This document shows, one piece after another, positions 633 to 34,590 of a DNA stretch of 64,000 nt (the stretch's first letter is position 1; each line of letters opens with the position of its first letter). Below the pieces are notes generated by a model. That model ran no database searches and had not been told where the DNA came from. It saw only the letters and a list, made by a program, of their open reading frames with translations. Made by a program: the position numbers and the translations under genes. The stretch comes from Octopus vulgaris (taxonomy: Eukaryota). The DNA lies in assembly GCA_951406725.2 (NCBI GenBank), contig OX597826.1:1550001-1614000 (forward strand), given 5' to 3'.

Positions 633-667
633 GTTTCCCGTTTCGAGCGGAGCTCTTCATCAGAAAT
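633..667 (-). ncRNA. Degenerate minimal hammerhead ribozyme motif (Penelope-type tail fragment, ~530-667)
   Basis: Minus strand reads TTT-CTGATGA-A-GAGC-tcc-GCTC-GAAAC-GGG-AAA. Both core boxes and a 4-bp stem II are present, but the cleavage triplet is GGG rather than NUH. Confidence 0.6.
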
Positions 668-730
<63 letters not shown>

Positions 731-812
731 GAGAGAGAGCAATATATATGGGCTTATAAAAATAATATTATATATACACACACACACACGCCTACATGCA
801 CATGCATTATGA

Positions 813-874
<62 letters not shown>

Positions 875-1619
875 TTATATAAAAATGGTGTGTGTGAATA
901 AGTACATACATACTTTACAATGTTCACACATATCTAAATATATATATAAAACTAAATACATACACACACATATATATATATAACTAAATATACACTCACA
1001 CACACATATATACAAATATATATGAATGTGAGTGTGTGTACACACACACATATATATATATATACATAATACATATACACATACGTACGTACACATATGT
1101 ATATGTATTATATATATATATATATATTTGTACATAAAGTATATATGTATTCACACAGAAACATGAACTCTCTTATTCAAACAATTATACATATATACAC
1201 ATACACACATGCTCTCTCTCTCTCTCTCTCTTTCTCTCACACACACACATGTACATGTATGTTTGCATGTACAAATATTTCTTTTTCAAACTAGTTAAAA
1301 AAGAAGCTCAGACAATTTGTATATTTTCTCCTCCCCCTCCTTTGCATTATGATTCTCTATTGATGCAAATTAAATCAAGTCTCCAGCGAGAACTCTGTAG
1401 TGTACGAGAAACCGGTTGGACAGGTTTAAGACAAAAGGAACCCAGAACTTTAGAATTATAGGCTGAGAAACGCAGCAGTAGTCAGTTTTCTTTATGGATC
1501 ATTTAAAGATTTTATACCTGTTTTTTTTGAATCATGAAAATGAGTACAAACAACTGAACGGTCTTCAAGTATATTTATTTCTCTATTTAGTTATTTAGTT
1601 ATTGTTATTATTATTATTA

Positions 1620-1654
<35 letters not shown>

Positions 1655-1794
1655 TTGTAATGCCGTTTAGGCAATGATTTGGCAGGAATGACATAATGTC
1701 ATATAACCTTGTATATGTCGTTTAGTATTCAAATTCTCTCGAGGTTGATTAATTTGGTTTTTGTTCTTTGGTGTTGTTTTGTTATTGTTTTATC

Positions 1795-2177
1795 TTTTGC
1801 TTGTTGCAGTCATTGGACTGTGGTCATGCTGGAGCTCTGCCTTGAAGGGTTTTAGTCAACCAGCTCGACCAGGTACCTACTTTTTCAACTTTGTACTTAT
1901 TCTGTCACTCTCTTTTACAGAACTGCGAATTATAGGGACACAAATGAACCAACATTGGTTGACATGGTGAGGGTGGAGACAAACAAAATCACAAACACAC
2001 ACACATATATATTCACACATAAAGGGCTTCCACAGAGTTTCCATCTACCAAATTCATTCATTAAGGGTTTGGTTGGCCAGGGGCTATAAGAGTTGACACT
2101 TGCCCAAGGTGCTGTGCTATAAGACTGAACCCAGAACCTTGTGGTTGCAAAATACACTTCTTAACCACACAGCCACG
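1795..2177 (-). mobile_element. Octopus tRNA-derived SINE, family A (OR/CORE-type)
   Basis: Reverse complement of the element at 3564-3980. Confidence 0.85.
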
Positions 2178-2458
2178 TTTATATTGTTGTTGTTCTATTT
2201 CTAGCTTCTTGGTGAAAGATGTTCCAGCCAGGAAAATACCATGTTTATGCAGTAATGATGTAACAATGCCTACACACACACACACACACATCTATCCACC
2301 CATAAGACAGGCTTCTTTCAGCTTCTCCCTGCCAAATTCACTTGCTAGGCTTTGGTCAGCCTAGTGCTGTAATAGAAGACACTTGTCCATGGTGTCACAC
2401 TGTGGGACTGAACCTGAAACCATGTGGTTGAGAAGCAAACTTTTTAATCACAGTCATT

Positions 2459-2517
2459 TTTATTGATGTACCTGAAGAGAACCAGAAACGGTTGAAACGT
2501 GTGTTGCACCCAATAAA
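2459..2517 (+). ncRNA. Hammerhead ribozyme-like motif (type I, partly decayed)
   Basis: GTAC-CTGAAGA-G-AACC-agaaac-GGTT-GAAAC-gtgt-GTT-GCAC, with an extended stem I TTTATTG/CAATAAA; the 3' strand contains AATAAA. Confidence 0.6.
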
Positions 2518-2689
2518 GTCTATTCCACATCCCATCTCCTCTTTTATTAATACTGTTACCCCAACCGCCACTACGAGGTCCCTGCAAGAAATCTTCGGAT
2601 AACAACAGGTAACCGAAACTGTGCTTTACTCATCATCCATTTATACATTTTAGTCAAGTACATCAACATCAAAATAAAAATCAAATGGA

Positions 2690-3172
2690 AATTGTAGCTG
2701 TGATACCCATGTCGGTGGAACATAAAAAGCACCATCCAAATGTGGCCGATGCCAGTGCTGCCTTGACTGGCTTCCGTGCCGGTGGCATGTAAAAAGCACC
2801 AACCGATCGTGGCCGTTGCCAGCCTTCTCTGGCCCCTGTGCCGCTGGCACATAAAAAGCACCCACTACACTTATGCAGTGGTTGGTGTTAGGAAGGACAT
2901 CGAGCTGTAGAAACACTGGCTCCCGTGATGGTGGTACGTAAAAAGCACCAACCAAACGTGGCCGTTTCCCACCTGACTGGCTCCTGTGCCGGTGGCACAT
3001 AAAAAGCACCCCCTACACCCTCGGAATGGTTGGCATCAGGAAGGGCATCCAGCTGTAGAAACATTGCCAGATCAGACTGGAGCCTGGTGCAGCTTCCTGG
3101 CTTCCCAGACCCTGGTCAAACCGTCCAAACCATGCCAGCATGGAAAATGGATGTTAAATTATGATGATGATG
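2690..3172 (+). mobile_element. RTE-related 3' UTR / SINE-like repeat with internal tandem units
   Basis: Repeated GTGCCGGTGGCAYRTAAAAAGCACC units, then TGGTTGGCRTYAGGAAGGGCATCCAGCTGTAGAAAC and a (GAT)n tail. The same tail is joined to RTE coding sequence at 4962-5760. Confidence 0.75.
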
Positions 3173-3183
3173 TACAATTTCTC

Positions 3184-3220
<37 letters not shown>

Positions 3221-3221
3221 A

Positions 3222-3546
3222 TGAAGGCATGTGGTCCAGTGGTCAGAGCACTGGGCTCACAAAGATGAGATAGTGAGTTTGATTCCCAGACTGCGTTATG
3301 TGTTGTACTCTTGAGCAAGATACTTTATTTCATGTTACTCCAGTTCGCTAAGCTCTAGAAATGCGTTACAATGTCACTGGTGCCAAACTGCTTGTCTTCC
3401 TCTTGGAATAACATCAGTAACACAGAGAGGGGAGGCTTATTTGAATGGGAAACTCCTGGTCATCCATAAAAAACCTTGCTCGGATATGTGTCTTGGAAGG
3501 CAACTTTCTAAGTGCAACCCATGACCGAAGAGGGCCTTTACCTTTT
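3222..3546 (+). mobile_element. tRNA-derived SINE, family D (CORE/MESC-like central domain)
   Basis: A box TGGTCCAGTGG, B box GAGTTTGATTCC, then CTTGAGCAAGATACTTTATTTCATGTTACTCCAGTTC. Confidence 0.7.
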
Positions 3547-3563
3547 ATATATATATATACCAT

Positions 3564-3980
3564 AGGCGCAGGCGTGGCTCTGTGGTAAGTAGCTTGCTTA
3601 CAAACCACATCGTTCAAGGTTCAGTCTCACTGCATGACACCTTGAGCAAGTGTCTTCTGCTATAGTCTCGGGCCAACCAAAGTCTTGTGAGTGGATTTGG
3701 TAAACAGAAACTGTTTTTATATATATATATATGTGTGTGTGTGTATGTGGGTATACGTAAATTTGTGTGTGTTTCTGTGTTTGTCCCCACCACCATCGCT
3801 TGACAACCAATGTTGGTGTGTTTACATCCCTGTAACTTAGCAGTTTTGCAAAAAGAGACCGATAGAATAAGTACTTGGCTTGCAAAGAATAAGTCCTGCG
3901 GGGTTGATTTGTTCAACTAGAGACAGTGCTCCAGCATGGCTGCAGTTAAATGACTGAAACAAATAAAAGAATAAAAGAAT
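3564..3980 (+). mobile_element. Octopus tRNA-derived SINE, family A, full length
   Basis: Head GGCGCAGGCGTGGCT...TGGTAAG and GGTTCAGTC, core CACCTTGRGCAAGTGTCTTCT...GTGAGTGGATTTGGTARA, internal (TA)n(TG)n, AAAAGAAT tail. More than 25 full or partial copies in the window. Confidence 0.9.
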
Positions 3981-4562
3981 ATATTTAGAGGTTCGGTGAG
4001 TGTTTGATAAGGGTTAATGCACAAAACTCCCACCTCTTGAGTCACTCTATTGCTTCAGCTAAATATTAATATATATATATATATATATATAAATATGGAA
4101 AAACACACCCACACCTGTGTATGTGTGTGAGTGTGAGGGTAACTTGACTCATTGCTATTGTGTAAGGCAGACATAATTGAACGTAACACTTACTTGTAAG
4201 AAATCGATATTATTAACACAATCATGTTGCCAGACACTAAATCTTCAGATTCTCTTGTATTTACTGTCTTTTCAATAGAATTTCTTAATTTCTTCCAGAC
4301 ATTACTTGAAATGCAGTGAATCTTCGTAAAGTGAGAATACATTTTTTTTTTTTTTTCTATTTCTTTTCCTTTTTTTATCGGAAGATGACTTGAATATTAT
4401 GAATGAGACACATTAACTAGTTCAATCAAATTACTAATTTATTGCAAAATATATTAAATAATTTTATTTTTTAAATTGTACTCGTTTGTGACAGCCATTT
4501 CCCAGTTGGATGCTAAATTATGAGTAAAAATTAACATAAACGAAGTTGATTGCCCATACAAT

Positions 4563-4780
4563 GGTTTCAAATTTTGCCACAAGGGCAGCAATATTGGGGG
4601 AGGGGGATGAGTTGATTAGACCGACACCAGTGCACAACTGGTACTCATTTTATTGACCCCAACAGGATGAAAAACAAAGTCGACCTCGGTGAAATTTAAA
4701 CTCAGAATGTAGCAACACGTGAAATACTGCCAAGCATTTCGCCCAGCAAACCAACGACTCCGCCAGATCACCACCTTGAT
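4563..4780 (-). mobile_element. SINE family B (MetaSINE-like domain)
   Basis: Reverse complement matches the family motif TTTCATCCTTTCGGGGTCGATAAA-TRAGTACCAG and head GAGCTGGCAGAA...CTGAGTTCAAATTC seen at 40925-41160. Confidence 0.8.
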
Positions 4781-4873
4781 AATAATTTCAGATTTTTGCC
4801 ACAAGGGCAGCTTAGGGGAAGGGGAGATGAGTCAATTGCATCAACACCAGTGTTGATATATATATGCACACAA

Positions 4874-4910
<37 letters not shown>

Positions 4911-4961
4911 TGCACACACATGCACACATACATACATACCTACTACTCTTCTAATTTACTA

Positions 4962-5760
4962 ATCATTTAACGTCTGTTTTTCCATGCTGGCATGGGTTGG
5001 ACAGTCAGACAGGAGATGATCAGCTGAAGAGCTGCTGCCTGGGCTTCATTTGTCTGTCTTGGCATGGTTTCTACAGCTGGATGTCCTTCCCAATGCTATC
5101 CACTTTACAAAGTGTAGTGGGTGCTTCTATGCAGCACTGGCACAGGGCCCTTTTTATGTGGTACTAGCATCGTTGAGCCTGCAAGATTGGGGAATATTCA
5201 GCTGGAGAGGGATGCAGGGGAGAGGGATGCAGGGGAGAGGGATGCAGGGGAGAGGGATGCAGGGGAGAGGGATGCAGGGGAGAGGGATGCAGGGGAGAGG
5301 GATGCAGGGGAGAGGGATGCAGGGGAGAGGGATGCAAGGGAGAGGGATGCAGGGGAGAGGGATGCAGGGGAGAGGGATGCAGGGGAGAGGGATGCAGGGG
5401 AGAGGGATGCAGGGGAGAGGGATGCAGGGGGGAGGGATGCAGGGGGGAGGGATGCAGGGGAGAGGGATGCAGGGGAGAGGGATGCAGGGGAGAGGGATGC
5501 AGGAGAGAGGGATGCAGGGGAGAGGGATGCAGGGGAGAGGCCTTTTATGCAAAGACAACCACATATTTACTTAACTTGATGTGTCTTCTGCAGCACCCCA
5601 CAAACTGCCAGGAGTCTTGGTCCCTTGTCATTCCCTCTGTGAGGTCCAACATCTGTAGATCCTTTCTCACCACTTCGTCTCACATCTTCCTGGGTCTACC
5701 CCTTCCACATGTTCCCTCCACAATCAGTGATTGGCACCTCTTGATGTAGCTGTCTTCATT
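4962..5760 (-). mobile_element. RTE-clade LINE 3' end (pseudogenised RT C-terminus plus 3' UTR)
   Basis: Minus strand translates NEDSYIKRCQSLIVEGTCGRGRPRKM*DEVVRKDLQMLDLTEGMTRDQDSW, which fits the RTE C-terminal 'G.R.RGRPR..W.D.V..D' motif. Confidence 0.85.
5204..5540. repeat. 15-bp minisatellite (GGAGAGGGATGCAGG)n, about 22 copies
   Basis: Direct reading; few substitutions between units. Confidence 0.97.
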
Positions 5761-6890
5761 CACGCACACGCATGCGCATGCACGCACGCACACACAGGGC
5801 TTCTTTCAGTTTCTGTCTATCATATCCACTCACAAAACTTTGGTGAGTTTCGGGTTATAGTAGAAGACATTTGTCCAAGGTGCCACGCAGTGGATTGAAC
5901 CTGTGACCATGTGGTTAAGAGACAAACCTTTTACTGCACAGTCATACAAACATCATTGCAAAATATTTACATCAATAGGTGAGTGGCTGTGGCATTCAAT
6001 TCTTAACCAATGCATCATTGAATGAGGTAAATCATTAATTAAACTCTTATATTTTCTGGGCTCTGAGGCTAAGAAGCTCACTTCGTAACCATTTGGTTTT
6101 GAGTTCAGTTCCACTGCACAGCACTGTGTGCAAGTATCTTCTCCTATAGCCTTGAGCTGACCAATGCTTTGAGAGTGGATGTGGTAGGTGGATACTCTGG
6201 AGAGGCATGTGCCAGTGTAGGTAGTAAGCTCTTTTAACACCTGTTGCAAGAGGTGTCCATCACTGCTACATCTATGCAAAAGAATGTTGTTCTCTAGCTA
6301 GCATGAGTTGTATTGTTTGAAAGGATCTGATGAGCCCCAGGGATGCATCATGCTCCATTTTAGCTTCAGTATGGTCTCTATGGCTTGATGCCCTTCCTAA
6401 CACTAACCACTTTACTATATGCATAAAACAAGTAATTATGACTGGTGTTATTCAAACACACAACCTTCCAATCTGGAACGTATGCACAAAAAGTTTTTTA
6501 TTTGTCAAATTTCTCCAATACAAATTAGAAATGAACTAATTTAAAGAACAAAGCTGCTTCAATAAAATTTGGGCAGCAACAAATATAGATTTTTTTGTTT
6601 TTGCTACTGTTTGCAAACTATATTTAGAGAGCATGTACAAAGTAATTTCTTTCTTTCTTGTGTGAGGGCATGGATGGCTGAGCTGACAGAATACCAAGCA
6701 ACAAGTGAACAGATCAATGATCTTGTCAATAGCATTGATGTGTGTTTATGGTGTAGTGTATTTATTCTTACTGGGCCAAGAGGGAGTGGCACTGGCTACA
6801 GCCTTGTTGATAGGATAAGGTCATTGACCAGTGAAGAGGTCAATGGTCTATGTCTTGTCAATGACATTGATGTGCATTTATGGTCTTGTG

Positions 6891-7146
6891 CAGTGGTTTT
6901 CAACTGGGGTCCACGTGACCCCTGGAGCACCATATAAGATTTTTGGGGTTCATGCAAGCACTATAGTAAATTGAGGATCTACAGTAGTATATTAAAGGTC
7001 CATGAAAATTTTTTACTTTAGATATATCTATTGCAAGTAACACAGTTAGGTTTCTTTCTCTGACATTTTACATAGTTCAGTTGACACAAGTTAATAAACG
7101 ATAGATAAAATAGGAATTTTGAAAGAAGAATCTATAAAACTAGTCT
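6891..7146 (+). mobile_element. hAT-like non-autonomous DNA element fragment
   Basis: Starts CAGTGGTTTTCAACTGGGGTCC, an hAT-type terminus. A related sequence lies at ~59617-59760. Confidence 0.5.
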
Positions 7147-7150
7147 TTAA

Positions 7151-7372
7151 CCCTTTTGTTGCCATATTTCTGTTGAGGTTCTCCGTGTTTCTTTCAATTA
7201 CTTTAAATCTAACAAAGAATTTAGTAAAATAACTTAGTTATCATTCAGCTAGTTGTTAGGAACATAAGTTGTGACTAAGGTTTGGTGGAAGATTTTAATT
7301 CAAAACTTATGGAAACAAGACATTTGTACAACAGAGCCAGAACCGGTTTCAGCCGGGTTGGTAACGAAAGGG
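7151..7372 (+). mobile_element. piggyBac-like MITE, family 1
   Basis: TTAA target duplication at 7147-7150 and 7373-7376; TIRs CCCTTTTGTTGCCA / TGGTAACGAAAGGG. A second copy lies at 23467-23672. Confidence 0.85.
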
Positions 7373-8354: not shown

Positions 8355-8402
<48 letters not shown>

Positions 8403-11096: not shown

Positions 11097-11575
11097 TTGT
11101 TGTTAACACGTTTTGGCTGATATACCCTCCAACCTTCTTCAGGTGCCTTGGGGGAAATTTCAAACCTGGGTTCTCTTTCCTAAGGTATATTTTTCAATGT
11201 TATTATTATTATTAATATTATTGTTCAGGTCACTGCTTGGAATCAAACTCAGAATCTTGGGTTTAGTATCCTTCGCTCTTAACCACCATGCCATAACGCC
11301 TTATGCCCATTACGCCATATGCCCATGGGTATATGGTGTAATGGCATAGTGGTTAAGAGTGCAGGCTACTAATCCCAAGATTCTGAGTTTGATTCCAAGC
11401 AGTGACCTGAACAATAATATTAATAATAATAATAACATCGAAAAATATACCATAGGAATGAGAACCCAGGTTTGAAATTTTCCCAAGACACCTGATGAAG
11501 GCTGGAGAGTATATCAGCTGAAACATGTTAACAACAAACAAGATGAGGACAAATATCTGTTGAATGTAAATAATG
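11097..11575. mobile_element. Fold-back palindrome: two head-to-head units of tRNA-like head + (AAT)n + Penelope-type hammerhead tail
   Basis: Arms 11097-11325 and 11326-11537 are reverse complements around the spacerless centre GCCCA|TGGGT. The tRNA-like head is at 11335-11407; CTGATGA-A-GGCTG...CAGCT-GAAAC is at ~11492-11524. Confidence 0.85.
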
Positions 11576-13599
11576 AACACGATATCATTTCTGCACCCAC
11601 CCTATTCACCAAATTTAGAACTTGCAGACTACCATCTCTTCCCCAAGATAAAAATGTAGCTCAAAGGTTGCTGTTTTAACACCATTATCAAAATCCAGAG
11701 TAAATCGCAGAAGGTCCGCAACTTGCTTACTGAAAACAACTTCCGGGCTGGATCCAAAAAATGGCAGGAATGCTGGGACTGGTATTGCTACACAAGGTGA
11801 TAATTTAGAAGGAGATGATGCTAAAACTTAAGGAAATAAGTTATTTTTTTATCAAACATAACTAGTCGTGGAATGTTCTGAAACCACCTTGTACGACCAT
11901 AAAATAGTTATCTATTTCTGAAAAATTCGATAGATCCTCAGAAATATGATAAGGAATTAAAGCAAAAGGAGAACAAAGATAAAATATTAGATTGTCTGGG
12001 ATTCTGGTCCATACATTATTCAGTGAGGATTAATACTCAGTCAAATTTCTAAAGTACTTAAGCTATGTCTAAATTAATTTTGAAAATGGCAAAGAATTTG
12101 GGAGGATTTAATGAAATCTTATAATTCTATCATTACTTAAGCACAATGTTTTCATGACCATATTTCTAAAGCATACTTATTCATGTATCTAAATTAATTT
12201 TGAAAATAACCAAAACCTTGGAACGATTTAATGAAAGAACCTTTTCATTATTGTAGCTGGTGATTTGGGAGTATAACTCAACAAAAGACTCTTACATAAA
12301 ATTCTGATGGATGGTTTTAATCTAAAAATGACTCTAGGGTTATCTGGCCTTTTTAACTATTTAACAAAACGTTAAAATAATAGAATAAAAAAATGATGCA
12401 ATTACACAGGGCAATTAACAAAGCTAGTTAAAATTAAACAAGTTATGCTAATTAAATTGTCTGTATAGTAATGAGCAATCTAGATTAATGATAAAGTTTT
12501 GACATGAATCCCTGAAGGCATTTTGCTTTTGTCAGTATTATCACTGCTGCCATTTTCTTCATTTCTTTCGACAGAATATAATAAAAGAAAGTTAACTTTA
12601 CATCACTACTGCTGTTCCCAGCATTATCAGTAACCTGATTGCTATTAGTGTTACCATTCTTGTCACTCGTCCTCCTATAAAATTATTAGAAATTACTAAA
12701 AAAAAAAAAAAATGCCAAAAACTGGTAGGAAACTTCTGAAAACTACACCTGTTAACTGTATGATGTAATCTGCAACATGATTGGTTTCTGATGAAGTTGC
12801 TAACCAATCAAGAAGAGGGTTACATTTGTAGGCTGATATATTAGTGATTGTAGTTGTTTTTTTGCTACATCATCGAATTTAATATCTTACTATAAGGCAT
12901 TACTTTCAGGGCTAAACCAAGGGTTTTGTGTTAAAGACTAGAAACAGTTGCAGATGGGTTGATAAAGAAATGGTTAAAGAACATCAAAATACAAATCAGA
13001 ATCAGAATCTTGAAATACCTGGCTGTGATCTCTAATAAGCAAAGAACATATTCAATGATATAATTTGGTACACCGGAAAACTACCCATTGAAATGTAGAC
13101 TATGGGGTACATTTCAATTTGAAGGCTAATGAGTGAGGAAGACTGGCTACTGAACAGACAGAGTAAAACGAGCCATTATAGGATTAGAAAGAGAAGTTTG
13201 GAAAAGGGAAGTCTAGGTGGGGGTGGGGAAACATAATCTAATTTCACAAAATAATTTTTAGATTACTAGTTTTGAAACCTTTTCACTAAATAACAATACA
13301 CTTCTACTAATATAGCTTTAGTATAATGAAAATGGTAAAACAAAATGTCAAATTTTTAACATTTTAGTTTATCGAAATTCAGATGGTAATGAGAATTGGG
13401 AAGAAGCGGTAGTGGAGAAGAAAATGCCAAATTTTTAATACTTTCATTTCTAAAAACAACAACAACACCACCAGACTACAACAATAGGAAAAACAGGATG
13501 ATCAAAGAAGATAAAAGCATAAACAGAAGAGGAATCCAAGGAAATGAAGACAATGGTGAGAATGAGGAAGAGGAGAAGGAATTGGTATTGCATGAATAA

Positions 13600-14512: not shown

Positions 14513-15288
14513 AAATAGATAAATAACCTGAAGGCTATTGTAACAGAAGCAATGTAACCCAGAACAGACAGACATCATCATCATCATTTAACGTATATGT
14601 TCCATGCTGGCATGGAACAGCACAACATCTGGTTTCAAATGAAATAAGGATCTTGTATATGCTGTATAGGGAGTTGGAAATCTTCAATGAAAAGAGACAA
14701 TTTTCATGCAATTTACAAGATTCTTTTTGATTCCCCTAAAAACTGTCTTTGGCATGGATTTATCAGGTTTCATTTGCAAAGGATCAAATAAATAAATTTT
14801 CAGAAAAAAACATTCCCCTTCTTTCCTTTGCCCCCACCTACAAAAAAAGGGGGCAATTTTTCCACTGACATATTGTATATATTGCAAACTTGTAATGAGT
14901 TGTGGTTGTTTATTTTCTTTTGTTTTGTTTTTTTATAGAAAAATGTTAGCTTTTAGTATCAAGATTTATTCTAAATATTCCTGTTTTTTTTTTTCTTTTT
15001 GATAAAGGAATTTTATAAACATTTGAATCAAAATAAAATGAAAGTGAAAAAAAGTTGAAATTCAGATTGTTTTGATTTTTATCTTTTTTTTTATAAATTT
15101 TAATCTTATTTCAGTGAATTATTATTGTTGGTTTGTTTAATTCTGTTTTTCAACTTTGTGTCTTTCAGTAACCAAGAGTTACAACTAGTACTGTTGACAG
15201 TGTTTGGGACCTCTTAACAAAACCTCTGTAACTCTGACCCACTTACTGGAATCTTAGTTAATTTTGGATAAAATTATGTACATTAAAA

Positions 15289-15450
15289 TTTACATTATTT
15301 ACATTTGATGGATATTTGTCCTCATCTTGTTCGTTGATAACACAACCTTTTTGGCTGATATAAGAAAGCTGGAGGGTATATCAACCGAAACATTGTATTA
15401 ACAACAAACAAGATGAGGACAAATATCCGTCGAATGTAAATAATGTAAAT
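15289..15450. mobile_element. Short fold-back palindrome of the same hammerhead tail family as 11097-11575
   Basis: TTTACATTATTTACATT...TTGGCTGATATA is mirrored by TATATCAACCGAAACATTGTATT...AATGTAAATAATGTAAA. The junction falls inside the ribozyme, so the CTGA box is lost. Confidence 0.85.
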
Positions 15451-16473
15451 AACTACTGAATTATTCCTCCAATTGTGTTCACTTGTTGTGGAACTTTATA
15501 GCCCAGGTCCAACCTCAATATTATGCGTGAGACAGAATAAAATCTACTGTAAAATGTTTGCTTGATATGTTGTTATATCACTCATACGCAACGTCACATG
15601 ACATACCCACCTAAATAACAGCACAACTGAAGGAAGTGCCTCATTATGGCACAATTCAAAGGCTGAAACTAATGAAAGAAATAAAAACTGGAATGGAACT
15701 CTTCCCTTATCTGTGGTTGCTCTCTTTGAATGACACTAAAATGTTGCCAAACTTTAAAAATAAAATAATTTACAGAAAATCCATAATAAACAGTCACATA
15801 CTTTAAATAAAAGTAAACGAAATAACAAATGAAGTAAAAGTTAGATTTAATTGCTGCCAAATGGTTGCAGTTATTTGCGTTTAGGTTTGGGCTACAATAA
15901 AATAAAATGCAATGCTAAAGGTAATAATAACAACGATGATGACTTTGATGATAATAATAATGAATGTTAAATAATGATGATGGTTATATACTGATGATGG
16001 TTATATACACCCAAAAATGCTTTCGATTCTTTTTTTTTTCCTGTTTATGTATGATTTCGTATATTGGCAGAAATCTACCATTTTTGACAGAGAACGGTGC
16101 AGTCGATTGCATCAAATCAAGCAAATGACAAGAAATCCATATTTCCTTTTCATCAGGGAAGAATAAACAGATAAAAGAGACAGCCCCATCACTACCATCT
16201 GTATGTCATGCTAGGGAGTGGGGGAATCTTCCATAGTCCTGGGCAGACCAAAGCCCTGTGAGTGAACTTGATAGATGGGAACTGAAAGAAGCTTATCATA
16301 AAAGTACCTGTGTGGTATCATGTAAAATCACCCAGCACACACTCTTGGAATGGTTGGCATTAGGAAGGGCATCCAGCCACAGAAACCATGCAAAATCAGA
16401 CTGGAGTCTGGTGCGGCTCCTCAACTCTTGTTAAACCATCCAACCCATTCCAGAACAGACAATAGTTGTTAGA

Positions 16474-21050: not shown

Positions 21051-21723
21051 CCACAAGAAAACGACCTCATGAAACTGAGAAGGGCTGATTCAATACAAAA
21101 TGCAGATTTACATTCAGGAAATGCATCTTTGTAAGACAGAGGAAGATTTGGCTATTATTTCTAGTAAATTGAATGACCATATGAATGGCTTACTTTTTTT
21201 ATATTCTTTTTTTCTTACCTTTTTTTTTTTTTATTCTTTTGCAATTTTAATTCTGATCAGCTTTTTAATGACGCAACCATCTGCTACCACCTTACCAATT
21301 CTACTGACTCTTTCTTCCAAGTTTTGATATGTTTTCTTTTTAAAAAACATGAATAGCTAAATAGTGCAAACAGCAATGACCTTAACTTTATAGAATTATC
21401 AGAAAATTAAAAAAAAGAGAAACATATACAAAAATATAAAATGCTAATTACCTTTTGTTTTTCTGTTTATGTTTTGTTTTTGAGCTTTTTGTTTGATTTT
21501 TTTATAACAAAAACAAAAAAGTATTTCTTACCTGCAAAAAGAAAGAAAAACAATTTCATTAGGGAAAATATATAAATTTAAGAATGATTTTTATCAACAA
21601 TTATTCTGTAGAAAAGAATTACTAACAGTCATTTCTACTTTCCTACAACAACCAATTTTCATTCTTTTATGTTTACTTTGGGTTATCTTGCATCTCTATT
21701 TCAATGAGTATGAAAAAATCTGT

Positions 21724-21764
21724 TTCCCTGATGAGGTCATCACAAGACTGAAACATGTCTGGAG
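21724..21764 (+). ncRNA. Minimal type-I hammerhead ribozyme with intact core
   Basis: TTCC-CTGATGA-GGTC-atcacaa-GACT-GAAAC-AT-GTC|T-GGAG. Stem III is the palindrome ACATGT, the cleavage triplet is GUC, and AATAAA plus an A-run follows at ~21784. Confidence 0.75.
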
Positions 21765-22837
21765 TTATCTCCCATATTTACAGAATAAAAAAAAAAACAG
21801 GCATTAGTCAATTACTAATTCTGTTTTGTTTTTTTGTCCCATCAATTATTATTATTTATGTATTTTAAAAAACTTTAATGCTCCAGACATTATGTTAACA
21901 TTAACTCAACTATATTTCATTCTACACCAAAGATAGTTTAGATAGATGTATCACTCACGAGAGCATTGGATTACAAGAAAATAGTCCGTAGTTCACATCC
22001 TGTTACTGATAATACATTAGGTCAATTAAATATGTAAATACTAAGGAAGCTATTGCTACTAAGATGACAATTTCCTACTAACCTCATTTCAGAGAGCCGT
22101 GTTACTATTACCTTGCTCTGATATTATGTGAGTCATAAATGAGTGTCCTTTCCGTTTTCAATGTTTTTTTGAAAAACCTGTCTACTATAGGCTTGAGCTG
22201 ACCAAAGCCTTATGAATGGATTTGGTAGATGGAGACTGAAAGAAGCTTGTCATATATATATATATATATTTATGTGTCTGTGTTTGTCTCCACCACAATC
22301 GCTTGACAACCAATGTTGGTGTGTTTACATCCCTGTAACTTGGCAGTTCGGCAAAAGAGACTGATAAAATAAGTACTAGGCTTACAAGGAATAAGTCCTG
22401 GGGTTGATCTGTTTTACTAAAGGCAGTGTTCCAGCATGGCCGCAGTCAAATGACATACCCAGGCCTATTTCCCACAAGAACCACACCAGGCATTCCGTTC
22501 GTTTCCCAGCTCAAGGGTGGGGGGTGGGGGCGTTCTATGCTCAGGTCAACACATAGAAAACCTACCTGAACAAATTCCCTCTAACTCATGCAAGCATGGA
22601 AAAATAGACGTTAAAAGGATGATGGTGATGAAAACTGGTTCTGAAAGAACTAAAATTGCTACCAAACTATTGCCCCCTCCTCCCTGGCCCTCTCTGTATG
22701 AAGCAACCTGCATTGAATGACAACAACACCAATAACAACTACATTAAAAGATATATTTGAAAACAAGTAGAAGCAGTTGAAACAAACAGTGTTGGATGAA
22801 ATGCTATTCCAATGTGACTGTTAGGCAAAACATACTT

Positions 22838-26530: not shown

Positions 26531-28912
26531 CTCATGTCTTCCTTGCACATATTCTTCCACAATCCATTGTCACCTAATTATCATTGTTCATATGCATCAC
26601 ATGACAATACAGATGAAGTCTTCTCTCTTGCAAATTTGTAGCTGATTTTTCTGCTGCCCATTTTTTTTTCTCTCGGCTCATCTGTTTTATCATTTATTCT
26701 TATTGAAATTACACATCCAGTGAAGCACGTCCACCTCATTTCTTTCCAGTCTTTGCACATTCTCTGCATTTCGTGCTCTTAGATACCACTGAACACACAC
26801 TGTAAAGTGGTTGCTATCAGCAAAAGTATCCAGTTGTAGACAACATGAAACCATGCTAAAGTGATTTAGGGGTGGGGTCATCAAAGCCCTATTGGCTCAC
26901 TGACCCTGTCAAACTGTCCCGACCTTTGCCAGCATGGAAAACAAATGCGAAATAATGATGATACATATGAATGTGTATGTCTGAGAAAATGCACAAACTT
27001 GTGAGATAGTACTGACAAAAAATAGCTACAAAACAACGCCCACACACAAACATATTCCAAAACATGTTTAAAATGCTTATATATGCATTTATAACACACA
27101 CACATCGTATATATGTATATATATATAGATTTACAGTAATATATATTCATATAATGAATCAACCCTCACATCTGTTCTTAGGCTATTTTCCAAATTTGTA
27201 ACTCTTTAAGGCACGTATTAACAGCAATTTTAATTACCTCCCTTAGTTAAATGTTTTCCCAGGAAAACATTAGCAAACAATAATTTGTAATTGACTTGTA
27301 TTCACTTGTATGTATGTGTGCATATATATACACACACGCACTCACACACACACTATTTCTTTATTAAACACGCACTCACACACACACACACACAACCGTG
27401 CTTGCCCACACACAACCACATGTAAACATCACACAGATGCATACGAAACGCCCTCATTTATCACATCACTGGTGCATCCTCCGCTCTTCCAAGCATCATT
27501 ACAGATGGACATTTCAAAACATTTTACTCAGTTGGTGCCATAGATATAACATCGACTACACCAGCACCACCATCACCCACCTCCACTCACACAACTACAA
27601 AAAAAACCCCCAACAAAACAAAACAAACACACACCAAATATATACCTGCCCTTCCTCACCAAATTACTCTGCTCCACCCCCAAAATTTCAAGAAAACGAA
27701 ACAAGGTACAAAATCTAAAGAATTAACTTAAGGATATTTTTTTTCTTCTTTTTTTCCTGAAGTTTTGGTAAATAATCATCCGAGTAATTCAAGTGAAACG
27801 GAGCTTTTTATGTTTAAGTGTGTCTGAAATCTGGGATTACCATTAACGTCCCTCAATAGCTATTTACAACAACATCTTGGCATCAATGCAGTTTTCTACA
27901 TCTGCTACCTCATTTCATAACATTCCGTCATCACCATCATCAGCATCATGATTGTGATCACCATCATCATAATCCCATCACTATCATCATCATCACACTG
28001 CTACCACCACCATCGTCATCGTCATTGTTCCAACCCTTGGCCTTACCATCGCATGATTCTTACTCTCCCTCATTCTCATCGTCTAGTTTTATCCTTTTCC
28101 TCATCACCACCATAAAGCTTTAAGCTTCATCTTTCCTTTACTCTGCCTCTTCGTTCTCCTCTTTATACTCATTTAATTCCATCCTTACCTCCTTCACTAC
28201 CACTTGCAGCAACAGTCCCACCGCCACCATGACCACCACTACCACCATCATCATCATCATCATCAACAGTTTTTATTGCTATACAAACTCACCAAGATTA
28301 TTACGATATGCACAATCACTTTTGTCCCCCACAAACTGTCAACCACCACCACCGCAATACCTATCAATATTCCTGCCAACCACCACCACCTCCACCACCT
28401 CCACCATCATTCTGGTTAGCACTCTCACCATTACCATAATTATTCCAACTTGTCATGAATAGCAAGTGTAACAGCAACAACAACAACAGCAACAAGAGAC
28501 ACCGTGGCAGGACATCATCATTTCTAGAAGCTCCATCACTGCTACCATCACCACTGCTTTAGTCGTTTCCCCACTAGTGTCACTGGTATCAACACCAGCT
28601 GTCAGATGCAACACTAGAAACAGCAATGTAGTCATTCTTTTATTTGTTTCAGTCATTAGACTGTGGCCATGCTGGGGCACCACCTCGAAGAATTTTTAGT
28701 TGAATGAGTCAACTCCAGAACCAGTTCTTCTTTTAAGCTTGGTGCTTATTCTTTTGGTCTCTTTTGCCAAACCACTAAGTAAAGGGGATGTAAACACACC
28801 AACATTGGTTGTGAAACAGTGTTGGGACAGACAGATAGAGATACACAGATACACACAAACACATGCAAACACAAACACACAGACAGACACACAGACAGAC
28901 AAGCAGACGTGC

Positions 28913-28966
<54 letters not shown>

Positions 28967-29354
28967 ATGTATGTATAAGTGCCAATGCATGAAACTCATG
29001 AACCTCAAGTGACTCTGTAGCTTCAGCTAAACAGTAATGGTTTCAAATTCCGGCACAAGGCCAGCAATTTCAAAGGAGTGAGTAAGTCAATTACATCAAC
29101 CCCATTATTTAACTGGTACTTCTTTTATTGACCTCATAAGGATGAAAGGCAGAGTCAACCATGACAAAATTTCAACTAAGATCATAAGGACAGTCAAAAG
29201 CCTGCTATCAATTCTGCCAGCTCAATATCAATTGAAATATACATAAACTCATATTTTGAGATCTATTTTCTCTGTTTAATCAACATATATGACAGGCTTC
29301 TTTCAGTTTCCATCTACCAAATCCACACAAGAGTTTGCTTGGCTTGAGGCTATA

Positions 29355-29582
29355 TTCTTTTATTTGTTTCAGTCATTTGACTACAGCCATGCTGGAGCAC
29401 CGCCTTTAGTTGAACAAACTGATCCCAGGATTTATTCTTTGTAAGCCTAGTACTGATTCTATTGGTCTCTGTTGTCGAACCGCTAAGTTATGGGGACGTA
29501 AATACACCAGCATTGATTGTCAAGCGATGGTGGGGGGACAAACACATACACACAAGCATAAACATATACATATAATAATATA

Positions 29583-29619
<37 letters not shown>

Positions 29620-29844
29620 CATACATATATGTACATACCTGCATATGTATATATACCTGCATATATGGGTACAGGACATCAAAAAAATGTGAACAAAATA
29701 AAAAACGAAAACATAACAAAAACATGGGAAACAAACTTTTTTTTCAAACAACGAAAGAAACAAATAGAGAAACAAGACAGGTAAGTAAGTACGTACGTAC
29801 GTACATACATACATATATACATACATACATATACATATGTATAT

Positions 29845-29897
<53 letters not shown>

Positions 29898-29990
29898 CAA
29901 CAGGCTTCTTTCAGTTTCCGTCTATCAAATCCACTTACAAGGCTTTGGTTGACCGAAGGCTATAGAAGAAGACACTTGCCCAAGGTGCAA
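29355..29990 (-). mobile_element. SINE family A with an A-rich insertion in its microsatellite
   Basis: Tail at 29355-29560 and body at 29900-29990, separated by (TA)n tracts and a non-family A-rich segment at ~29665-29785. Confidence 0.8.
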
Positions 29991-30607
29991 CACATTGGGG
30001 GTGAGAAGGTCATCTGCTGGCTTGTTGCCTTCAGAGATGTGAAATAAAGGATCTCTTATTTGGACAACAGATAAGGCTTCATTAGCAGAAAGGCATCCGG
30101 CTTGGGCAAGTGTCTCCTACTGTAACACTGATCCAACAAAAGCCTTGCGAGTAGATTTGGTAGACAGAAACTGAAAGAAGCATATCATGTGTGAGTGTGT
30201 GTCCTTGTCTTCACATCATATGATGGTTCTAAATAAGCATCAACAGCAGACAAGCAAAGTTGATCATTTTCAGTCTTCTGTGAAGAAAATGTCTAACTGT
30301 GGGGAAAATATTATTTTACTTGGAAACAGGTGGCACAAAGGGCATCCAGCCATAGAAAATCTGCCTCAACAAATTCCATCTGACCCATTCAAATATGGAA
30401 AAGGGAACATTAAATGATGATGATACAGATGTGTGTGTACTTTTTTTCTAGTTATTGCTAGTTTGTCTTTACAGATAACAATTTAATTTACGGAGATGTA
30501 CTTGCATAGCAAGTGACTTGATCTGAGATCATGTGCTGGAACGAAATTTAATTTAATTCAATAGTCATCTTTTCTTTTATCAGTTGTTTATTTATTTGAT
30601 GACGATG

Positions 30608-30642
<35 letters not shown>

Positions 30643-30986
30643 CATAGCTGTAGGGATGACTGTGTAGTAAGAAGCTTACTTTCCAACCACATGGTTCCGG
30701 GTTCAGTCCCACTGCATGGTACCATGGGCAAGTGTCTTCTACTATAGCCTTGAGCCAACCAAAACCTTGTGAGTGGATTTGGTAGATGGAAATTGAAAGA
30801 AGCCCATTGTATATATACATAATAGGCACAGCAGTGGTTGTGGGGTAAGAAGCTTGCTTCCCAACCACATGGTTCTGGGTTCAGTCCCACTGCATGGCAC
30901 CTTGGGCAAGTGTCTTCTACTAGAGCCTCAGGCTGACCAAAGCCTTGAGAGTGGATTTGGTAGACAGAAACAGAAAGAAGCCCATC

Positions 30987-31011
<25 letters not shown>

Positions 31012-31022
<11 letters not shown>

Positions 31023-31363
31023 ATTCGAGACAAAACCACTATTTTAAAATCAAACAAGGAAATACTTAATCAATACATAAAATTTTAATATAAATTAAAT
31101 AAACCGCCACTACTTCATAATTTGATACTGATTAGAAGATCGAAAATCCACCTGAAGAATGTCAGTAGAGGACAGGAAACAATTGTAGTGGCAGTTTATT
31201 TAATTTATATTAAAATTTTATGTATTGATTAAGTATTTCCTTGTTTGATTTTAAAATAGTGGTTTTGTCTCGAATTATATTATATAATATTTTACTATAA
31301 AATTGGATTTAACCCTAAATCTGATTTTTCCCTGTAATTTTGGATTCATTCCCTAATATTTAT

Positions 31364-31365
<2 letters not shown>
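31012..31365 (+). mobile_element. Fold-back Penelope-like mini-element with a hammerhead in the loop
   Basis: About 102-bp arms (31012-31113 and 31185-31286) with one visible mismatch; (TA)n on both sides. Confidence 0.9.
31148..31191 (+). ncRNA. Minimal type-I hammerhead ribozyme
   Basis: CCAC-CTGAAGA-a-TGTC-agtagag-GACA-g-GAAAC-AATT-GTA|GTGG. Stem I is CCAC/GTGG, stem III is the palindrome ACAATTGT, and the cleavage triplet is GUA. Confidence 0.8.
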
Positions 31366-31410
<45 letters not shown>

Positions 31411-32094
31411 ATATGTTTGTGTGTCTGTCCCACCACCATTGCTTGACAATCGATGTTGGTGTGTTTACACCCCTGTAACTTAGTGGTTCATCAAAAGAGA
31501 CTGATAGAATAAGTACTCGGTTTACAAAGAACAAGTCCTGGAGTCGGTTTGCTCAACTAAAGGTGATGCTCTAGCATGGCCGCAGCCAAATGACTGAAAC
31601 AAAATCATATACATATATATATGTGTGCCCTTTCAGAGAAACTCAGTCTTTTCTGAGTGGCATATGACCCTGACACAGGAACTGTTGCCAGAGCAATCCA
31701 TGTCATATTCAACACTCAACAAGCGACGTTGTGCAAGTGTCAAAGATTACTATGCAAATAATTCATCAGATCAATACAGAATCATATGATATTTAATGCT
31801 CTCAACTAATGACTCATGTCTTCACAGCATTGTCTCTGCTGATTTTTTTCTTCATATTCTTTATATTAATAAAGTCTGGTCTACACCAGCTCTTGACAAG
31901 GAGATTTTTGACAGACTTATGAATGATTAAGCCTACTTATTTATGGCTTTCTCTTGAATATATACAACAGAGTATATATTATTATGATAATTTGTTGGGT
32001 ATTTTTTTAATTTTTCACTTGGTAGAGGCATAATTAATTGAATCATTTCTTGTATGAGTTCCTGCTTTGTGTTTTGAGTATCATTTATCTAGAG

Positions 32095-32553
32095 CAGGTC
32101 TGACCAATTCGAATTACATTGTGGGCCACTTTAATCACAGGAAGTTTATTGAGGGCCGCTTGTATACTGACAGAATTGAAAGCATTTTGCTTTCTCGTGC
32201 TATTATTACAATAATGAGTGAATGATCGTTGAGTCAACATGAAATATTATCGTTGCAAAAACAGGAGTATCTTTCTTTTTTACTTTTCATTACAATCTTT
32301 AATCATTGATAAAATTTTTTTAATGTTTGTTTAAATAAACCCATTTCAAGAAAGTATCAAGTGGGCCACAATATAAAAGTCTGTGGACTGCAAGATAAAA
32401 GTCTGCAGGTCACAAAATAAAAGTCTATGGGCCACAAGAGTTTGAGGGTTGCAAGATGAAAGTTTGCTGGCCGCAAGTGTCTGAGGGTTGCAAGTGTCTG
32501 AGGGTTGCAAGTGTCTGAGGGTCGCAAGATAAAAGTCTGCAGATCAACCTGTG
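32095..32553 (+). mobile_element. hAT-like element remnant with subterminal tandem repeats
   Basis: Starts CAGGTCTGACCAA...GTGGGCCAC; ends in AAAGTCTGYGGGYCRCAA-type units and three GCAAGTGTCTGAGGGT copies. Confidence 0.45.
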
Positions 32554-32564
32554 GCCTATGCCAG

Positions 32565-33150
32565 TGATGTAACCAGCCCACTTATGCATACCTTTCTTTC
32601 ATTGGACACTAAACTCTGCTTGCGAAGACCTGTTGAGGCAAGTGAAATTGAAATCAAATTTGCTGACATGGCCGATGACAACACCACCTGACTGGCATCT
32701 GTGCTGGTGGAACGTTAAGAGCACCATCCGAGGATGATTGTTGCCAGGGCCACCGACTGGCTCTTGTGCCGGTGGCATAAAAAAAGCACCATTTGAACAT
32801 GATCGTTACCAGTGTCGCCTTACTGGCACTTGTGCTGGTGGCATGCGAAAAACAACATTCTAGCGAGGTCGTTGCCAGTGCTGCTGGACTGGCTCCTGTG
32901 CAGGTGACACATAAAAAACACCACTTGAGCATGGCCGTTGCCAGTACCGCCTGACTAGCCCTCATACCAGTAGCATGTAAAAGCACCCACTACACTCTCA
33001 GAGTGGTTGGCATTAGGAAGGACATCCAGCTGTAGAAACTCTACCAGATCAGATTGGAGCCTGGTGCAGCCATCTGGCTCGCCAGTCCTCAGTCAAATCG
33101 TCCAATCCATGCCAGCATGGAAAGCGGACGTTAAACAATGATGATGATGA
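32565..33150 (+). mobile_element. RTE-related 3' UTR / SINE-like repeat with five tandem units
   Basis: Same structure as 2690-3172, ending in (GAT)n. Confidence 0.75.
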
Positions 33151-34213
33151 TTTTAGTGTCCATTTTCCAGAGGGATAGAAATGTGTTTTGCTGTAGAGGA
33201 GATACATAGGTAACCAGTCTGCTGGAGAGGGAGAGAGAAAAAGAGAGAGAGAGAGGGAGAAGTGGAAGAGAGCAAGAGGGTGAGAGTGCAAGAGAGAGTA
33301 GAAGAGAGATGGTGAAGTGTCAGGGCATACCCTCAAGGTACAGGGCATCAGAATATAAATGGGACGATAGAGTATTGCCAAGGGTGCTGCACTTCACACA
33401 CACACACACACACACATATGCATTCTCAAATCTCTTGCACCTGTTCACAAGATATTTGATCTGTGGTCGTGGGTTCAGATTAAATTGCATTGCGTAAAAA
33501 TTGTTGTGATCATAGTTACCTGTGTACACTAGTGGGTATACTTTTACTAATCTTTTTTTGTGAATCAATGTCATTCATTGTATATCTACGATTTTTAAAC
33601 TGATAGTCTCCTTCTCTGAATCTCAAAGATACTTTGTAAAATATTTTATTACAATGCAACAAAAGCAAAGGAAAGTGAATATATGCTTTTAATACCTGCA
33701 ATAACTACCATGAAATTCAAGATGTCCAACCATAACCATCCACTCATTTTACCTTCTTATATGCCCTTCTTTATTTTATGATAACAAAGCATCATTTAAA
33801 GAACATTTAGCTACTCTTTCTGGCTGACAGAGCAATCACCTATTCGTTTCTTACTGTCCCGTTCAGTGACTGGTATTTTGTACAAGGACCAACATCAACC
33901 TCGTCGACAAAGAAGACATCAAAACTGTTTCAGCTAAAATTTGTTACCTGTAAAATACTGAAAATAGGAAAAGCATTTCTACTTCTCTCTGTTCAGTTTT
34001 ATTCTTTTTACTAGTATCAATCATTTGACTGTGGCCATGCTGGAGCACCGCCTTTAGTTGAACAAATCGACCTTAGGACTTATTCTTTGTAAGCCTAGTA
34101 TTTATTCTATCGGTTTCTTTTGCCAAACCACTAAATTACAGGGATGAAAACACACCAACATTGGTTGTCAAGCAATGGTGGTGGTGGGGGACAAACACAG
34201 ACACAGATACACA

Positions 34214-34249
<36 letters not shown>

Positions 34250-34254
<5 letters not shown>

Positions 34255-34590
34255 GTAATATGTGACAATTATTCGGTAGCCATGATAAAACTCCGAGTTT
34301 CGGATGTTGGGGCGGAAATCTACGCCATCATCTCTTCAGTTATCTGGCCACTGGAAAAAATGCTATGAAAATGACTGTTAAATGGTCAATTTCATAGCAT
34401 TTTTTCCGATTTTTTTTTCCGAATAACAGAAGAGATGGCGGTGTGGATTTCCACCCCGACATCCGAAACTTGGAGTTTTATCATGTTTATCATGGCTACT
34501 GAATAATTGTCACATATTACATTTACAGATAAATTCCTTTATTTACATAACATCGAGGTCTCTTTCCTTCTTTTGTTGTCTTACCATTTC
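34250..34590. mobile_element. Fold-back Penelope-like mini-element with a hammerhead in each arm
   Basis: Arms ~34250-34378 and ~34382-34525 fold around TGACTGT-taa-ATGGTCA. The element begins at the (TA)n of a truncated family A SINE (34000-34250). Confidence 0.9.
34284..34344 (-). ncRNA. Type-I hammerhead ribozyme with long stem II
   Basis: Minus strand GATAA-CTGAAGA-GATG-at-GGCG-tagatttc-CGCC-ccaa-CATC-c-GAAACT-cgg-AGTT|TTATC: 5-bp stem I, 3-bp stem III, GUU triplet. The mirror copy has CAGAAGA, a core mutation. Confidence 0.75.

Follow-up and report, generated by a model that had tools for sequence, protein, structure and literature searches.

The 64,000-nucleotide stretch of Octopus vulgaris DNA analysed here (the window) holds seven short loci with hammerhead motifs, referred to below by their approximate start positions. 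An earlier note had sorted them into six families, and this division is borne out: the loci at 11097 and 15289 belong to one family and the other five are mutually unrelated, a weak 26-bp match between 2459 and 34250 being the sole similarity among them. The features are as follows.

536..668, minus strand: 5'-truncated copy of the 633 family (a family of about 205 bp); core 663-657, cut-site region mutated; lies between dinucleotide repeats and is not palindromic
2458..2650, plus strand: 2459-family copy, truncated at its 5' end; hammerhead core at 2472, mismatches in stem I and in stem II
11097..11295, minus strand: left (inverted) arm of a Poseidon-like Penelope-like element (PLE) end, with tRNA-like head, (AAT)n tract and hammerhead; lacks 3 nt at the cut site and is truncated at the outer end
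11296..11326, no strand: stretch where the two arms meet head to head, at the predicted start of Pol III transcription; varies between copies
11327..11410, plus strand: right arm's tRNA-like head, with an A box near 11342-11352 and a B box near 11387-11395; both boxes were placed by eye and are decayed in this copy
11458..11576, plus strand: beginning of the PLE reading frame, which overlaps the hammerhead; core at 11492, frame broken (by eye), no tail, 3 nt missing at the cut site
15288..15452, no strand: second, shorter two-armed stump of the 11097 PLE; minus arm 15362-15288, plus arm 15365-15452, both beginning inside hammerhead stem II
21720..21775, plus strand: member of an old hammerhead family of low copy number; core at 21728, stem I mismatch, ends approximate
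31007..31113, minus strand: 31012 family (young), short arm in inverted orientation, beginning about 2 nt before the predicted cut site; no tail, outer end merging into (TA)n
31112..31363, plus strand: full 31012 arm with fixed 5' end, hammerhead core at 31152 and 71-nt tail, then (TA)n
34250..34382, minus strand: inverted, tail-less arm of the 34250 PLE end; core at 34339, the best-preserved hammerhead of the window; adjoins (TA)n
34376..34590, plus strand: arm of the 34250 PLE end that carries the tail; mutated core; elsewhere in the genome, longer copies reach an RT and GIY-YIG frame

The minimal hammerhead core boxes described before were recovered at motif positions 663 (minus), 2472, 11492, 21728, 31152 and 34339 (minus), and the 15289 copy indeed starts within stem II, with the first core box absent. 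Four local fold-backs (11097-11537, 15288-15450, 31007-31290 and 34241-34534) have their hammerheads directed outward and one arm longer than the other. All loci are dispersed repeats in the genome; first-look searches gave 1637 candidates for 633, 564 for 2459, 8558 for 11097, 50 for 21724, 1562 for 31012 and 4152 for 34250, figures that are not copy numbers.

Hammerhead motifs are abundant above chance, as had been proposed. A strict descriptor found 12 matches in a 560-kb blind sample of 56 10-kb stretches (6 with the standard core, 3 U3-A8 and 3 A6 variants), against 1 match in 30 runs on shuffled sequence (0-1 per shuffle). None of the window copies passed this descriptor; they are mutated, and no bulge was permitted within stem II. 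In single-strand folding, no window copy beat its shuffles (z from -1.6 to +0.6), and Rfam gave no hammerhead among the window matches listed (150 of 154) or in 13 loci; both negatives are expected of minimal motifs and carry no weight. In all six families the majority letters give the core boxes and paired stems of Penelope-type minimal type-I hammerheads. The core is conserved slightly above the flanks (0.96-0.995 versus 0.85-0.95 within families), a weak contrast since the copies decay neutrally and CpG sites fall outside the core. The hammerheads are predicted to act as dimers or with the help of protein; most genomic copies are dead.

The loci had been taken for a separate class of non-autonomous hairpin elements. 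This is not supported; three of the four fold-back loci are ends of ORF-bearing PLEs: longer copies show that 11097, 15289 and 34250 are truncated ends of such elements. For the 11097 family, locus L229 carries a GIY-YIG C-terminus immediately upstream of the arm, and in 27 of 30 loci retrieved with this segment the arm directly follows the stop codon. In locus L344 the element is full: it has a target duplication, carries the inverted arm on its 5' side and matches RVT_1 above cut-off. The Pfam GIY-YIG model did not score on the C-terminal piece, and the assignment rests on its motif and homologs; homologs of the protein are of the RT/GIY-YIG type, the best 55% identical. The hammerhead overlaps the first codons, a hammerhead-spanning peptide matching the N-terminus of protein P0001 (50%, E = 3.7e-7), itself without relatives in metagenome or viral collections. 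For the 34250 family, the long copies L422, L433, L413, L439, L430 and L423 align contiguously into a frame whose RT region matches another PLE (E = 7.5e-12), with a weak GIY-YIG match under cut-off (E = 0.0029). The description of the loci as non-coding does not hold for 11097 and 15289, which overlap coding sequence. The window has no PLE frame besides these pieces.

For 633, 2459, 21724 and 31012, no coding partner appeared in the loci examined, the genome searches having scored the best 40 candidates; these four are likely PLE terminal pieces as well. Longer copies of the 2459 family reach more than 400 nt further upstream, again with no coding partner found. In the 31012 family the 5' end lies at a constant point, near 76 nt ahead of the cut site, and none of 60 loci has an ORF; this family and most 633 copies could be non-autonomous PLE derivatives. 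A genome-wide Pfam GIY-YIG search showed PLEs to be abundant, including a young 781-aa family. As partners of the window families these were rejected, their ends bearing other hammerheads with no match; apparent links of 633 to L187, 2459 to L334 and 34250 to L351 turned out to be adjacent elements, each with ends of its own.

The two-armed insertions share a footprint. In three families the tail is on exactly one arm in 40 of 46, 43 of 44 and 50 of 53 pairs (133/143 together), and in the 11097 family target duplications of at least 10 bp (range 10-18 bp) flank 34 of 41 rows, compared with 1.5% for mismatched flanks. Duplications were not seen at the window's own 11097 and 15289 copies and are unreadable inside (TA)n. 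Two-armed copies consist of head-to-head inverted arms with a centre that differs from copy to copy. Palindromy is family-specific: it was found for 21 of 37 arms in the 11097 family and is rare in the 633 family, of which a head-to-head inverted copy is not typical. In the 31012 family either arm may be the 5'-complete one. This fold-back architecture matches the PLE insertion footprint described in PMC3846280 and PMC8557442; PMC4209133 reports opposite-strand pairs of minimal hammerheads 100-700 bp apart. Long inverted arms and target duplications would also suit MITEs with incidental hammerhead-like motifs. We consider this very improbable, given outer ends made unequal by a fixed tail, a centre that varies per copy, a duplication of variable length (10-18 bp) and long copies that join RT frames in two families. 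Animal non-LTR retrozymes, tandem hammerhead repeats spread via circular RNAs, likewise place short hammerhead-bearing repeats in invertebrates (PMC7229834), and one pair of 31012 copies (L293/L294) is head to tail. That pair, however, includes duplicated flank. Retrozymes form tandem arrays of 150-450 bp units whose hammerheads are canonical, whereas the octopus loci are dispersed, single or head to head and not in tandem arrays, with hammerheads of the minimal PLE type, and this origin too is very improbable.

The mirror half had been attributed to fold-back or template-switch copying. That it is made during copying we retain; simple fold-back is argued against by the 11097 family, where the arms often differ at inherited sites. 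At non-CpG subfamily sites, its arms were discordant at 14/54 (background 6.0%, P = 2.6e-6), and those of the 34250 family at 26/231 (background 5.6%, P = 5e-4). Some 34250 diagnostic sites may be decayed CpGs that passed the filter, inflating discordance. In the young 31012 family the arms matched at 117 of the 120 diagnostic sites (excess discordance, P = 0.086), a result equally compatible with fold-back on a single template and with sister RNAs. A second marker is a 3-nt loss at the predicted cut site, present in 28 of 105 arms of the 11097 family (next local indel, 4); it shows no linkage to the subfamily sites, and its presence in one arm is independent of the other (15 pairs long-long, 16 mixed and 2 short-short). 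Being in frame, the loss may be inherited from source repeats. As a general feature it was rejected, being absent at the equivalent site in 31012 (0/70) and 34250. Together, the discordance and the independent 3-nt loss favour two separate reverse-transcription passes over cDNA fold-back. Arm-to-arm homogenisation in L049, a segmental duplicate, indicates that later conversion blurs this test.

We consider it likely that the loci are stump-sized terminal pieces of PLEs, the two-armed ones formed by nicking of both strands with each nick priming its own reverse transcription. A Poseidon protein studied in vitro nicks both strands and extends them from two start sites, which define the tail (PMC11167929). 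In octopus, the RT-endonuclease would nick both DNA strands and each nick would prime separate copying of element RNA, one pass from an outer start site that includes the tail and the other from an inner site that leaves it out. Both passes would run toward the RNA 5' end, stopping there or earlier, and the two cDNA arms would be joined head to head through microhomology. The templates would usually be sister RNAs or two repeats within one tandem RNA. Alternatively, a separate class of non-autonomous hammerhead hairpins might gain its second arm from the first cDNA by fold-back or self-priming. The 31012 family, with its fixed 5' end, lack of ORFs and near-identical arms, would suit this, as would the 633 family, whose copies mostly measure about 205 bp and share a 5' end; PMC3846280 proposed self-priming at head-to-head PLE junctions. 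We nevertheless regard it as unlikely. Two of the three fold-back families have ORF-linked long copies, the arms are discordant and the 3-nt loss assorts independently, and the tail-less arm is often the more 5'-complete. Some 633 copies reach upstream (L392 and L401 share about 320 nt), and a fixed 5' end is equally expected where internal priming leads to copying of the 5' part of a full-length RNA.

The terminal repeat of the 11097 family holds a putative tRNA-derived A/B-box promoter, from which Pol III would likely make the element RNA: 48 of 74 heads are A-box-like and 62 of 74 B-box-like, with a spacing of 45 nt (by eye). The tRNA model scored only 12.5 bits on the head (E = 3.3, gathering 29) and missed a second copy, and ARAGORN found no tRNA. 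Of the 21 arms extending as far as the head, 15 end no more than 12 nt from where it begins. The head start is a short natural palindrome, which alone could draw junctions. A full-length copy has 0 T4 runs in 2625 nt; synonymous shuffling of 2160 coding nt predicts 3.2 (P = 0.017), the first 600 nt of the frame being known from one copy. L343 carries 2 T4 runs, and L345 alone gives P = 0.10.

The boxes, the arm stops and the T4-free copy suggest, at the level of sequence, Pol III transcription of the 11097 element, which would explain both why arms stop at the head and why the sense strand is T4-free. An autonomous Poseidon-like element with a captured tRNA-derived promoter, a full-length Pol III transcript (about 2.8 kb), a frame purged of stop signals, two-pass insertions and a 3-nt loss due to a germ-line RT jump over hammerhead-cleaved RNA is, taken as a whole, a tentative proposal with a chance just short of even. 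A non-autonomous, PLE-dependent SINE was ruled out for the family by the reading frame in L229; tRNA-derived SINEs are non-coding and non-autonomous, whereas this head belongs to an RT/GIY-YIG element whose downstream part is coding. The head might instead be a captured SINE fragment in the 3' UTR of an element transcribed by Pol II, with junctions piled up by the palindrome and T4 absence by chance. We hold this to be a serious possibility, if below even, in view of the weak tRNA score, the single-copy coverage of part of the frame and the modest P value; the sole tested Penelope promoter is internal, LINE-like and TATA-less (PMC2377424). Against chance, T runs alone are depleted in the frame, and A, C and G runs are not. 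With coverage as high as 34, no T4 site recurs in three or more copies. In six other PLE frames of this genome T4 runs number 1-9, five of these frames lying close to or above expectation, and 14 related frames matched in T content have 2-16; among related frames, 0 of 36 of at least 1500 nt are T4-free and 0 of 30 have A and B boxes behind the frame.

A Pol III-driven coding retrotransposon, if true, would be out of the ordinary, since transcripts of Pol III lack a cap and tend to be short. It would raise the question of how the protein is made and blur the divide between SINEs and autonomous elements. We found no such element in the literature covered, most subscription papers and the curated repeat databases lying outside that scope. 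The Schistosoma Sm-alpha-type repeats have a promoter that is tRNA-derived and serves Pol III. These SINE-like repeats resemble the 11097 element in the order of promoter and hammerhead (PMC6765202), but they are non-coding, whereas the octopus head sits in a protein-coding retrotransposon. The Anolis Poseidon element PAc (PMC11167929) likewise has its hammerhead over the start of the reading frame, its tail within the first codons, and an RT with C-terminal GIY-YIG. An 836-aa Anolis protein (P0014), which we infer to be PAc, is 35% identical to the RT region of the 11097 element.

As first framed, the hammerhead loci are of a known kind, PLE ends with minimal hammerheads. PMC4209133 and PMC6765202 describe, for the minimal type-I hammerheads of metazoan PLEs, the same short stem I, tiny palindromic stem III and U3-A8 variant, a stem II that in some families is preceded by one additional nucleotide, a multitude of unrelated families within a genome and opposite-strand pairs 100-700 bp apart; the parts consulted hold no mention of a recurrent in-frame 3-nt loss at the predicted cut site, seen in about a quarter of 11097 arms. 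With the footprint of EN+ PLEs (PMC3846280, PMC8557442 and PMC2377424), the octopus insertions share the head-to-head inverted 5'-truncated copy, the junction palindrome, the single tail, the short target duplication and AT-rich or microsatellite targets. They differ in that most are reduced to the terminal repeat alone and in their tails, about 30 nt in 11097 and 34250 and 71 nt in 31012. Arm haplotypes provide a cheap genomic test of how PLEs build head-to-head ends; whereas self-priming was proposed in PMC3846280, they point here to two passes, favouring two priming events.

The earlier note's observation of seven hammerhead-bearing repeat loci was confirmed, all seven being present in the window (starts at 633, 2459, 11097, 15289, 21724, 31012 and 34250). 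As claimed, they fall into six families, 11097 and 15289 sharing one and the rest being unrelated, and searches of the 2.8-Gb host genome found every one of the families dispersed across it. When 14 to 152 distinct arms of each family were aligned, the column majorities contained the core boxes and stems I–III in six of six families, in agreement with the described core with stem II and a tiny palindromic stem III. About half of the arms in the 633 set have G at the cut position, a nucleotide disfavoured there by the usual cleavage rule. A strict hammerhead descriptor gave 12 matches in 56 blind 10-kb stretches vs. 1 in 30 shuffle runs; it gave no match inside the window, where the copies are mutated. 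Rfam scans gave no hammerhead signal, and single-strand folding gave none either.

The fold-back architecture, with the ribozyme pointing outward and one arm longer than the other, was likewise seen at four loci as local fold-backs. Microsatellites and SINEs are plentiful in the window, and the following other features were recorded there:

Repeats and frames in the window other than the hammerhead loci
5204-5540, 22.5 copies of a 15-bp purine-rich unit, 98% matched
29904-30181, local inverted pair of common SINE pieces, arms 67-80% alike, no hammerhead seen
41247-41892, a further such SINE pair, same arm similarity, no hammerhead seen
56541-57593 (+), 351-codon stop-free frame, retroelement-like by eye
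59181-59567, a further such SINE pair, same arm similarity, no hammerhead seen
61006-61621, a further such SINE pair, same arm similarity, no hammerhead seen

The same 560 kb of blind sequence contained 5 insertions of the 11097 family, 16 matches to the 633 superfamily, 2 insertions of the 34250 family, 1 relative of the 31012 family and no copy of the 2459 family. Genome-wide, this corresponds to roughly 25,000 copies of the 11097 family and 80,000 of the 633 superfamily, with a wide error.

Longer copies reveal what the 11097 and 34250 families belong to. At one locus (L229), the end of a GIY-YIG frame lies directly upstream of an 11097 arm, and a search with this segment returned 30 loci, 27 of which have the arm right behind the stop codon. 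A complete 2.6-kb element of the family (L344) is flanked by a 13-bp duplication, has an inverted arm at its 5' end and matches RVT_1 above the cut-off; the proteins related to it are of the RT/GIY-YIG type, with 55% identity for the best and 35% for one from Anolis. The first ~50 codons of the element are the hammerhead and tail themselves, and the hammerhead-spanning peptide, which runs on into the conserved frame, matches the N terminus of a related protein (P0001; 50%, E 3.7e-7). In the 34250 family, six long copies were followed upstream and found to contain an RT region and a GIY-YIG-like C terminus. As the longer copies of both families run into the frames of Penelope-like elements (PLEs), the fold-back loci at 11097, 15289 and 34250, three of the four, represent truncated ends of protein-coding PLEs. 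The overall interpretation is partly supported: the repeats are hammerhead-bearing, abundant and dispersed, but the proposed separate class of non-autonomous hammerhead hairpins fails for these three loci.

Other PLE arrangements were also recorded. Other repeats often insert into the (AAT)n tract of the 11097 terminal repeat (L226, L442, L446, L462 and L476). In L351:1473-4400 (G000:C16:56883470-56886400), a truncated 34250 arm stands head to head with a different PLE family, which has a hammerhead of its own and an RT frame containing an asparagine-rich insert, the two being joined at a small palindrome; (TA)n at both ends hides any duplication, and the composite, if one insertion, drew on RNAs of two families. 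A young PLE family (L201-L206, L213 and L214) has an intact RT/GIY-YIG frame of 781 codons, preceded by another frame of about 380-400 codons that matches nothing in Pfam. Behind the stop it carries repeated promoter-like motifs, and a U3-A8 hammerhead lies close to the end of the element.

Approximately 30 nt behind its stop codon, the 11097 element carries a tRNA-like head. The A-box pattern matched 48 and the B-box pattern 62 of 74 heads, at tRNA spacing as counted by eye; the Rfam tRNA model aligned one head weakly (12.5 bits, E 3.3) and missed another copy. Among 37 arms picked by hammerhead similarity alone, 21 with an inverted partner, 15 end no more than 12 nt from the head start, 5 run on further upstream and 1 ends inside the head; the remaining 16 end downstream of the head or were interrupted by later insertions. 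A small palindrome at the head start could attract junctions by itself. From the boxes we predicted a lack of Pol III stop signals, runs of four or more T (T4) in the sense strand, and then checked for them. L344, part of whose frame rests on one copy, has no T4 run in 2625 nt and 25 runs of three T (shuffle P 0.002-0.003, synonymous-codon P 0.017), and other bases are unaffected. Aligned copies of the element totaling 35.7 kb contain 10 T4 runs, none common to more than two copies, and six other PLE frames of the same genome have 1-9. The comparison with other organisms covered 75 of 79 related loci, four being left out: every one of the 36 frames of at least 1500 nt had a T4 run, and the 14 of matched T content had 2-16 runs. 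A and B boxes behind the frame were found in 0 of 30 related loci with downstream DNA, the same pattern finding 11 of 30 decayed copies here. At the sequence level, these patterns are suggestive of Pol III transcription of the whole element.

The palindrome centre is unlike in every copy, with filler in some, and the palindrome was therefore built at insertion. The filler at the L020 centre (G000:C6, near 70148600) consists of a few telomere-type repeats. The tail is confined to one arm in 133 of 143 pairs, and a duplication of 10-18 bp lies beside 34 of 41 rows of the 11097 family (two rows from one locus; control 1.5%). The earlier note proposed fold-back or template-switch copying; if the second arm were copied from the first cDNA, the arms would be identical at birth. 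In the young 31012 family, the arms are indeed alike at 117 of 120 sites. In the 11097 family, the two arms carry the same state at linked non-CpG subfamily sites more often than chance predicts (23/32, 20/25 and 17/20), but they disagree at 14 of 54, far above the 6.0% background (p 2.6e-6), and both linked sites are switched in three insertions. Arms of 34250 disagree at 26 of 231 sites vs. 5.6%, CpG contamination being possible. A 3-nt loss at the predicted cut site, found in 28 of 105 arms of the 11097 family, shows no linkage to subfamily, and its presence in one arm is independent of the other (15 pairs with both arms long, 16 mixed and 2 with both short), against fold-back; few rare mutations are common to both arms (21 vs. 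461). On the other side, the loss was not seen in 31012 or 34250. Copying from a fixed first strand does not predict that the tail-less 31012 arm is often more complete than the tailed one. The origin of the palindrome at insertion thus stands, and the arm differences in 11097 favour two priming events: one on each nicked strand would give the two arms, from two start sites and usually on sister RNAs, which is the best fit. Three origins of the 3-nt loss are conceivable: a jump of the RT across RNA predicted to be cleaved, using microhomology of 2 nt; a DNA hot spot; or inheritance as an in-frame variant.

An RT/GIY-YIG partner was sought for the 633, 2459, 21724 and 31012 families and not found in the loci examined. 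Copies of 2459 are variably truncated and, followed for >400 nt upstream, reached no frame; those of 31012, at 60 loci that include some duplicates, share a fixed 5' end ~76 nt upstream of the cut site; most 633 copies are ~205 bp and seldom inverted, two reaching further; and the 21724 family is old and sparse. By hammerhead type and target choice the four families are PLE-like, and some may be non-autonomous. Hammerhead relatives of 633 with altered core positions are abundant (L366, L395, L097, L099 and L119; superfamily members L368, L377 and L379), the changes including A6 variants and a U4-to-C subfamily. Among three segmental duplicates of one 31012 insertion (L044, L046 and L049), L049 alone carries a 2-nt insertion, found in both of its arms, a sign of conversion between the arms once the element had inserted.

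As a set, the loci are of a known kind, PLE ends with minimal hammerheads. The portions of the literature drawn on here describe such hammerheads in the repeats of PLEs, some of them as pairs on opposite strands 100-700 bp apart (PMC4209133), and inverted PLE copies joined head to head, with a palindrome at the junction and a tail on one side, as well as algal PLEs that are non-autonomous (both PMC3846280, PMC8557442); they also treat hammerhead dimer cleavage, Schistosoma repeats and retrozymes (PMC6765202, PMC7229834) and note 235 hammerheads in a squid (PMC6962438). An octopus repeat annotation reports 31 recently active PLE families, and the parts of its main text used here make no mention of hammerheads, ribozymes or palindromes; its supplements or library may already hold the window families (PMC13282606). 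The Drosophila Penelope promoter is described as internal and LINE-like (PMC2377424), and among the papers listed by a literature search none dealt with a PLE, or another autonomous retrotransposon, that has a tRNA or Pol III promoter. What is new here is the evidence from arm haplotypes and a coding element that has a tRNA-like head and lacks T4 runs. The two-priming reading fits what the Anolis Poseidon protein does in vitro, where it nicks both strands and extends them from two start sites, the hammerhead there depending on the protein (PMC11167929).
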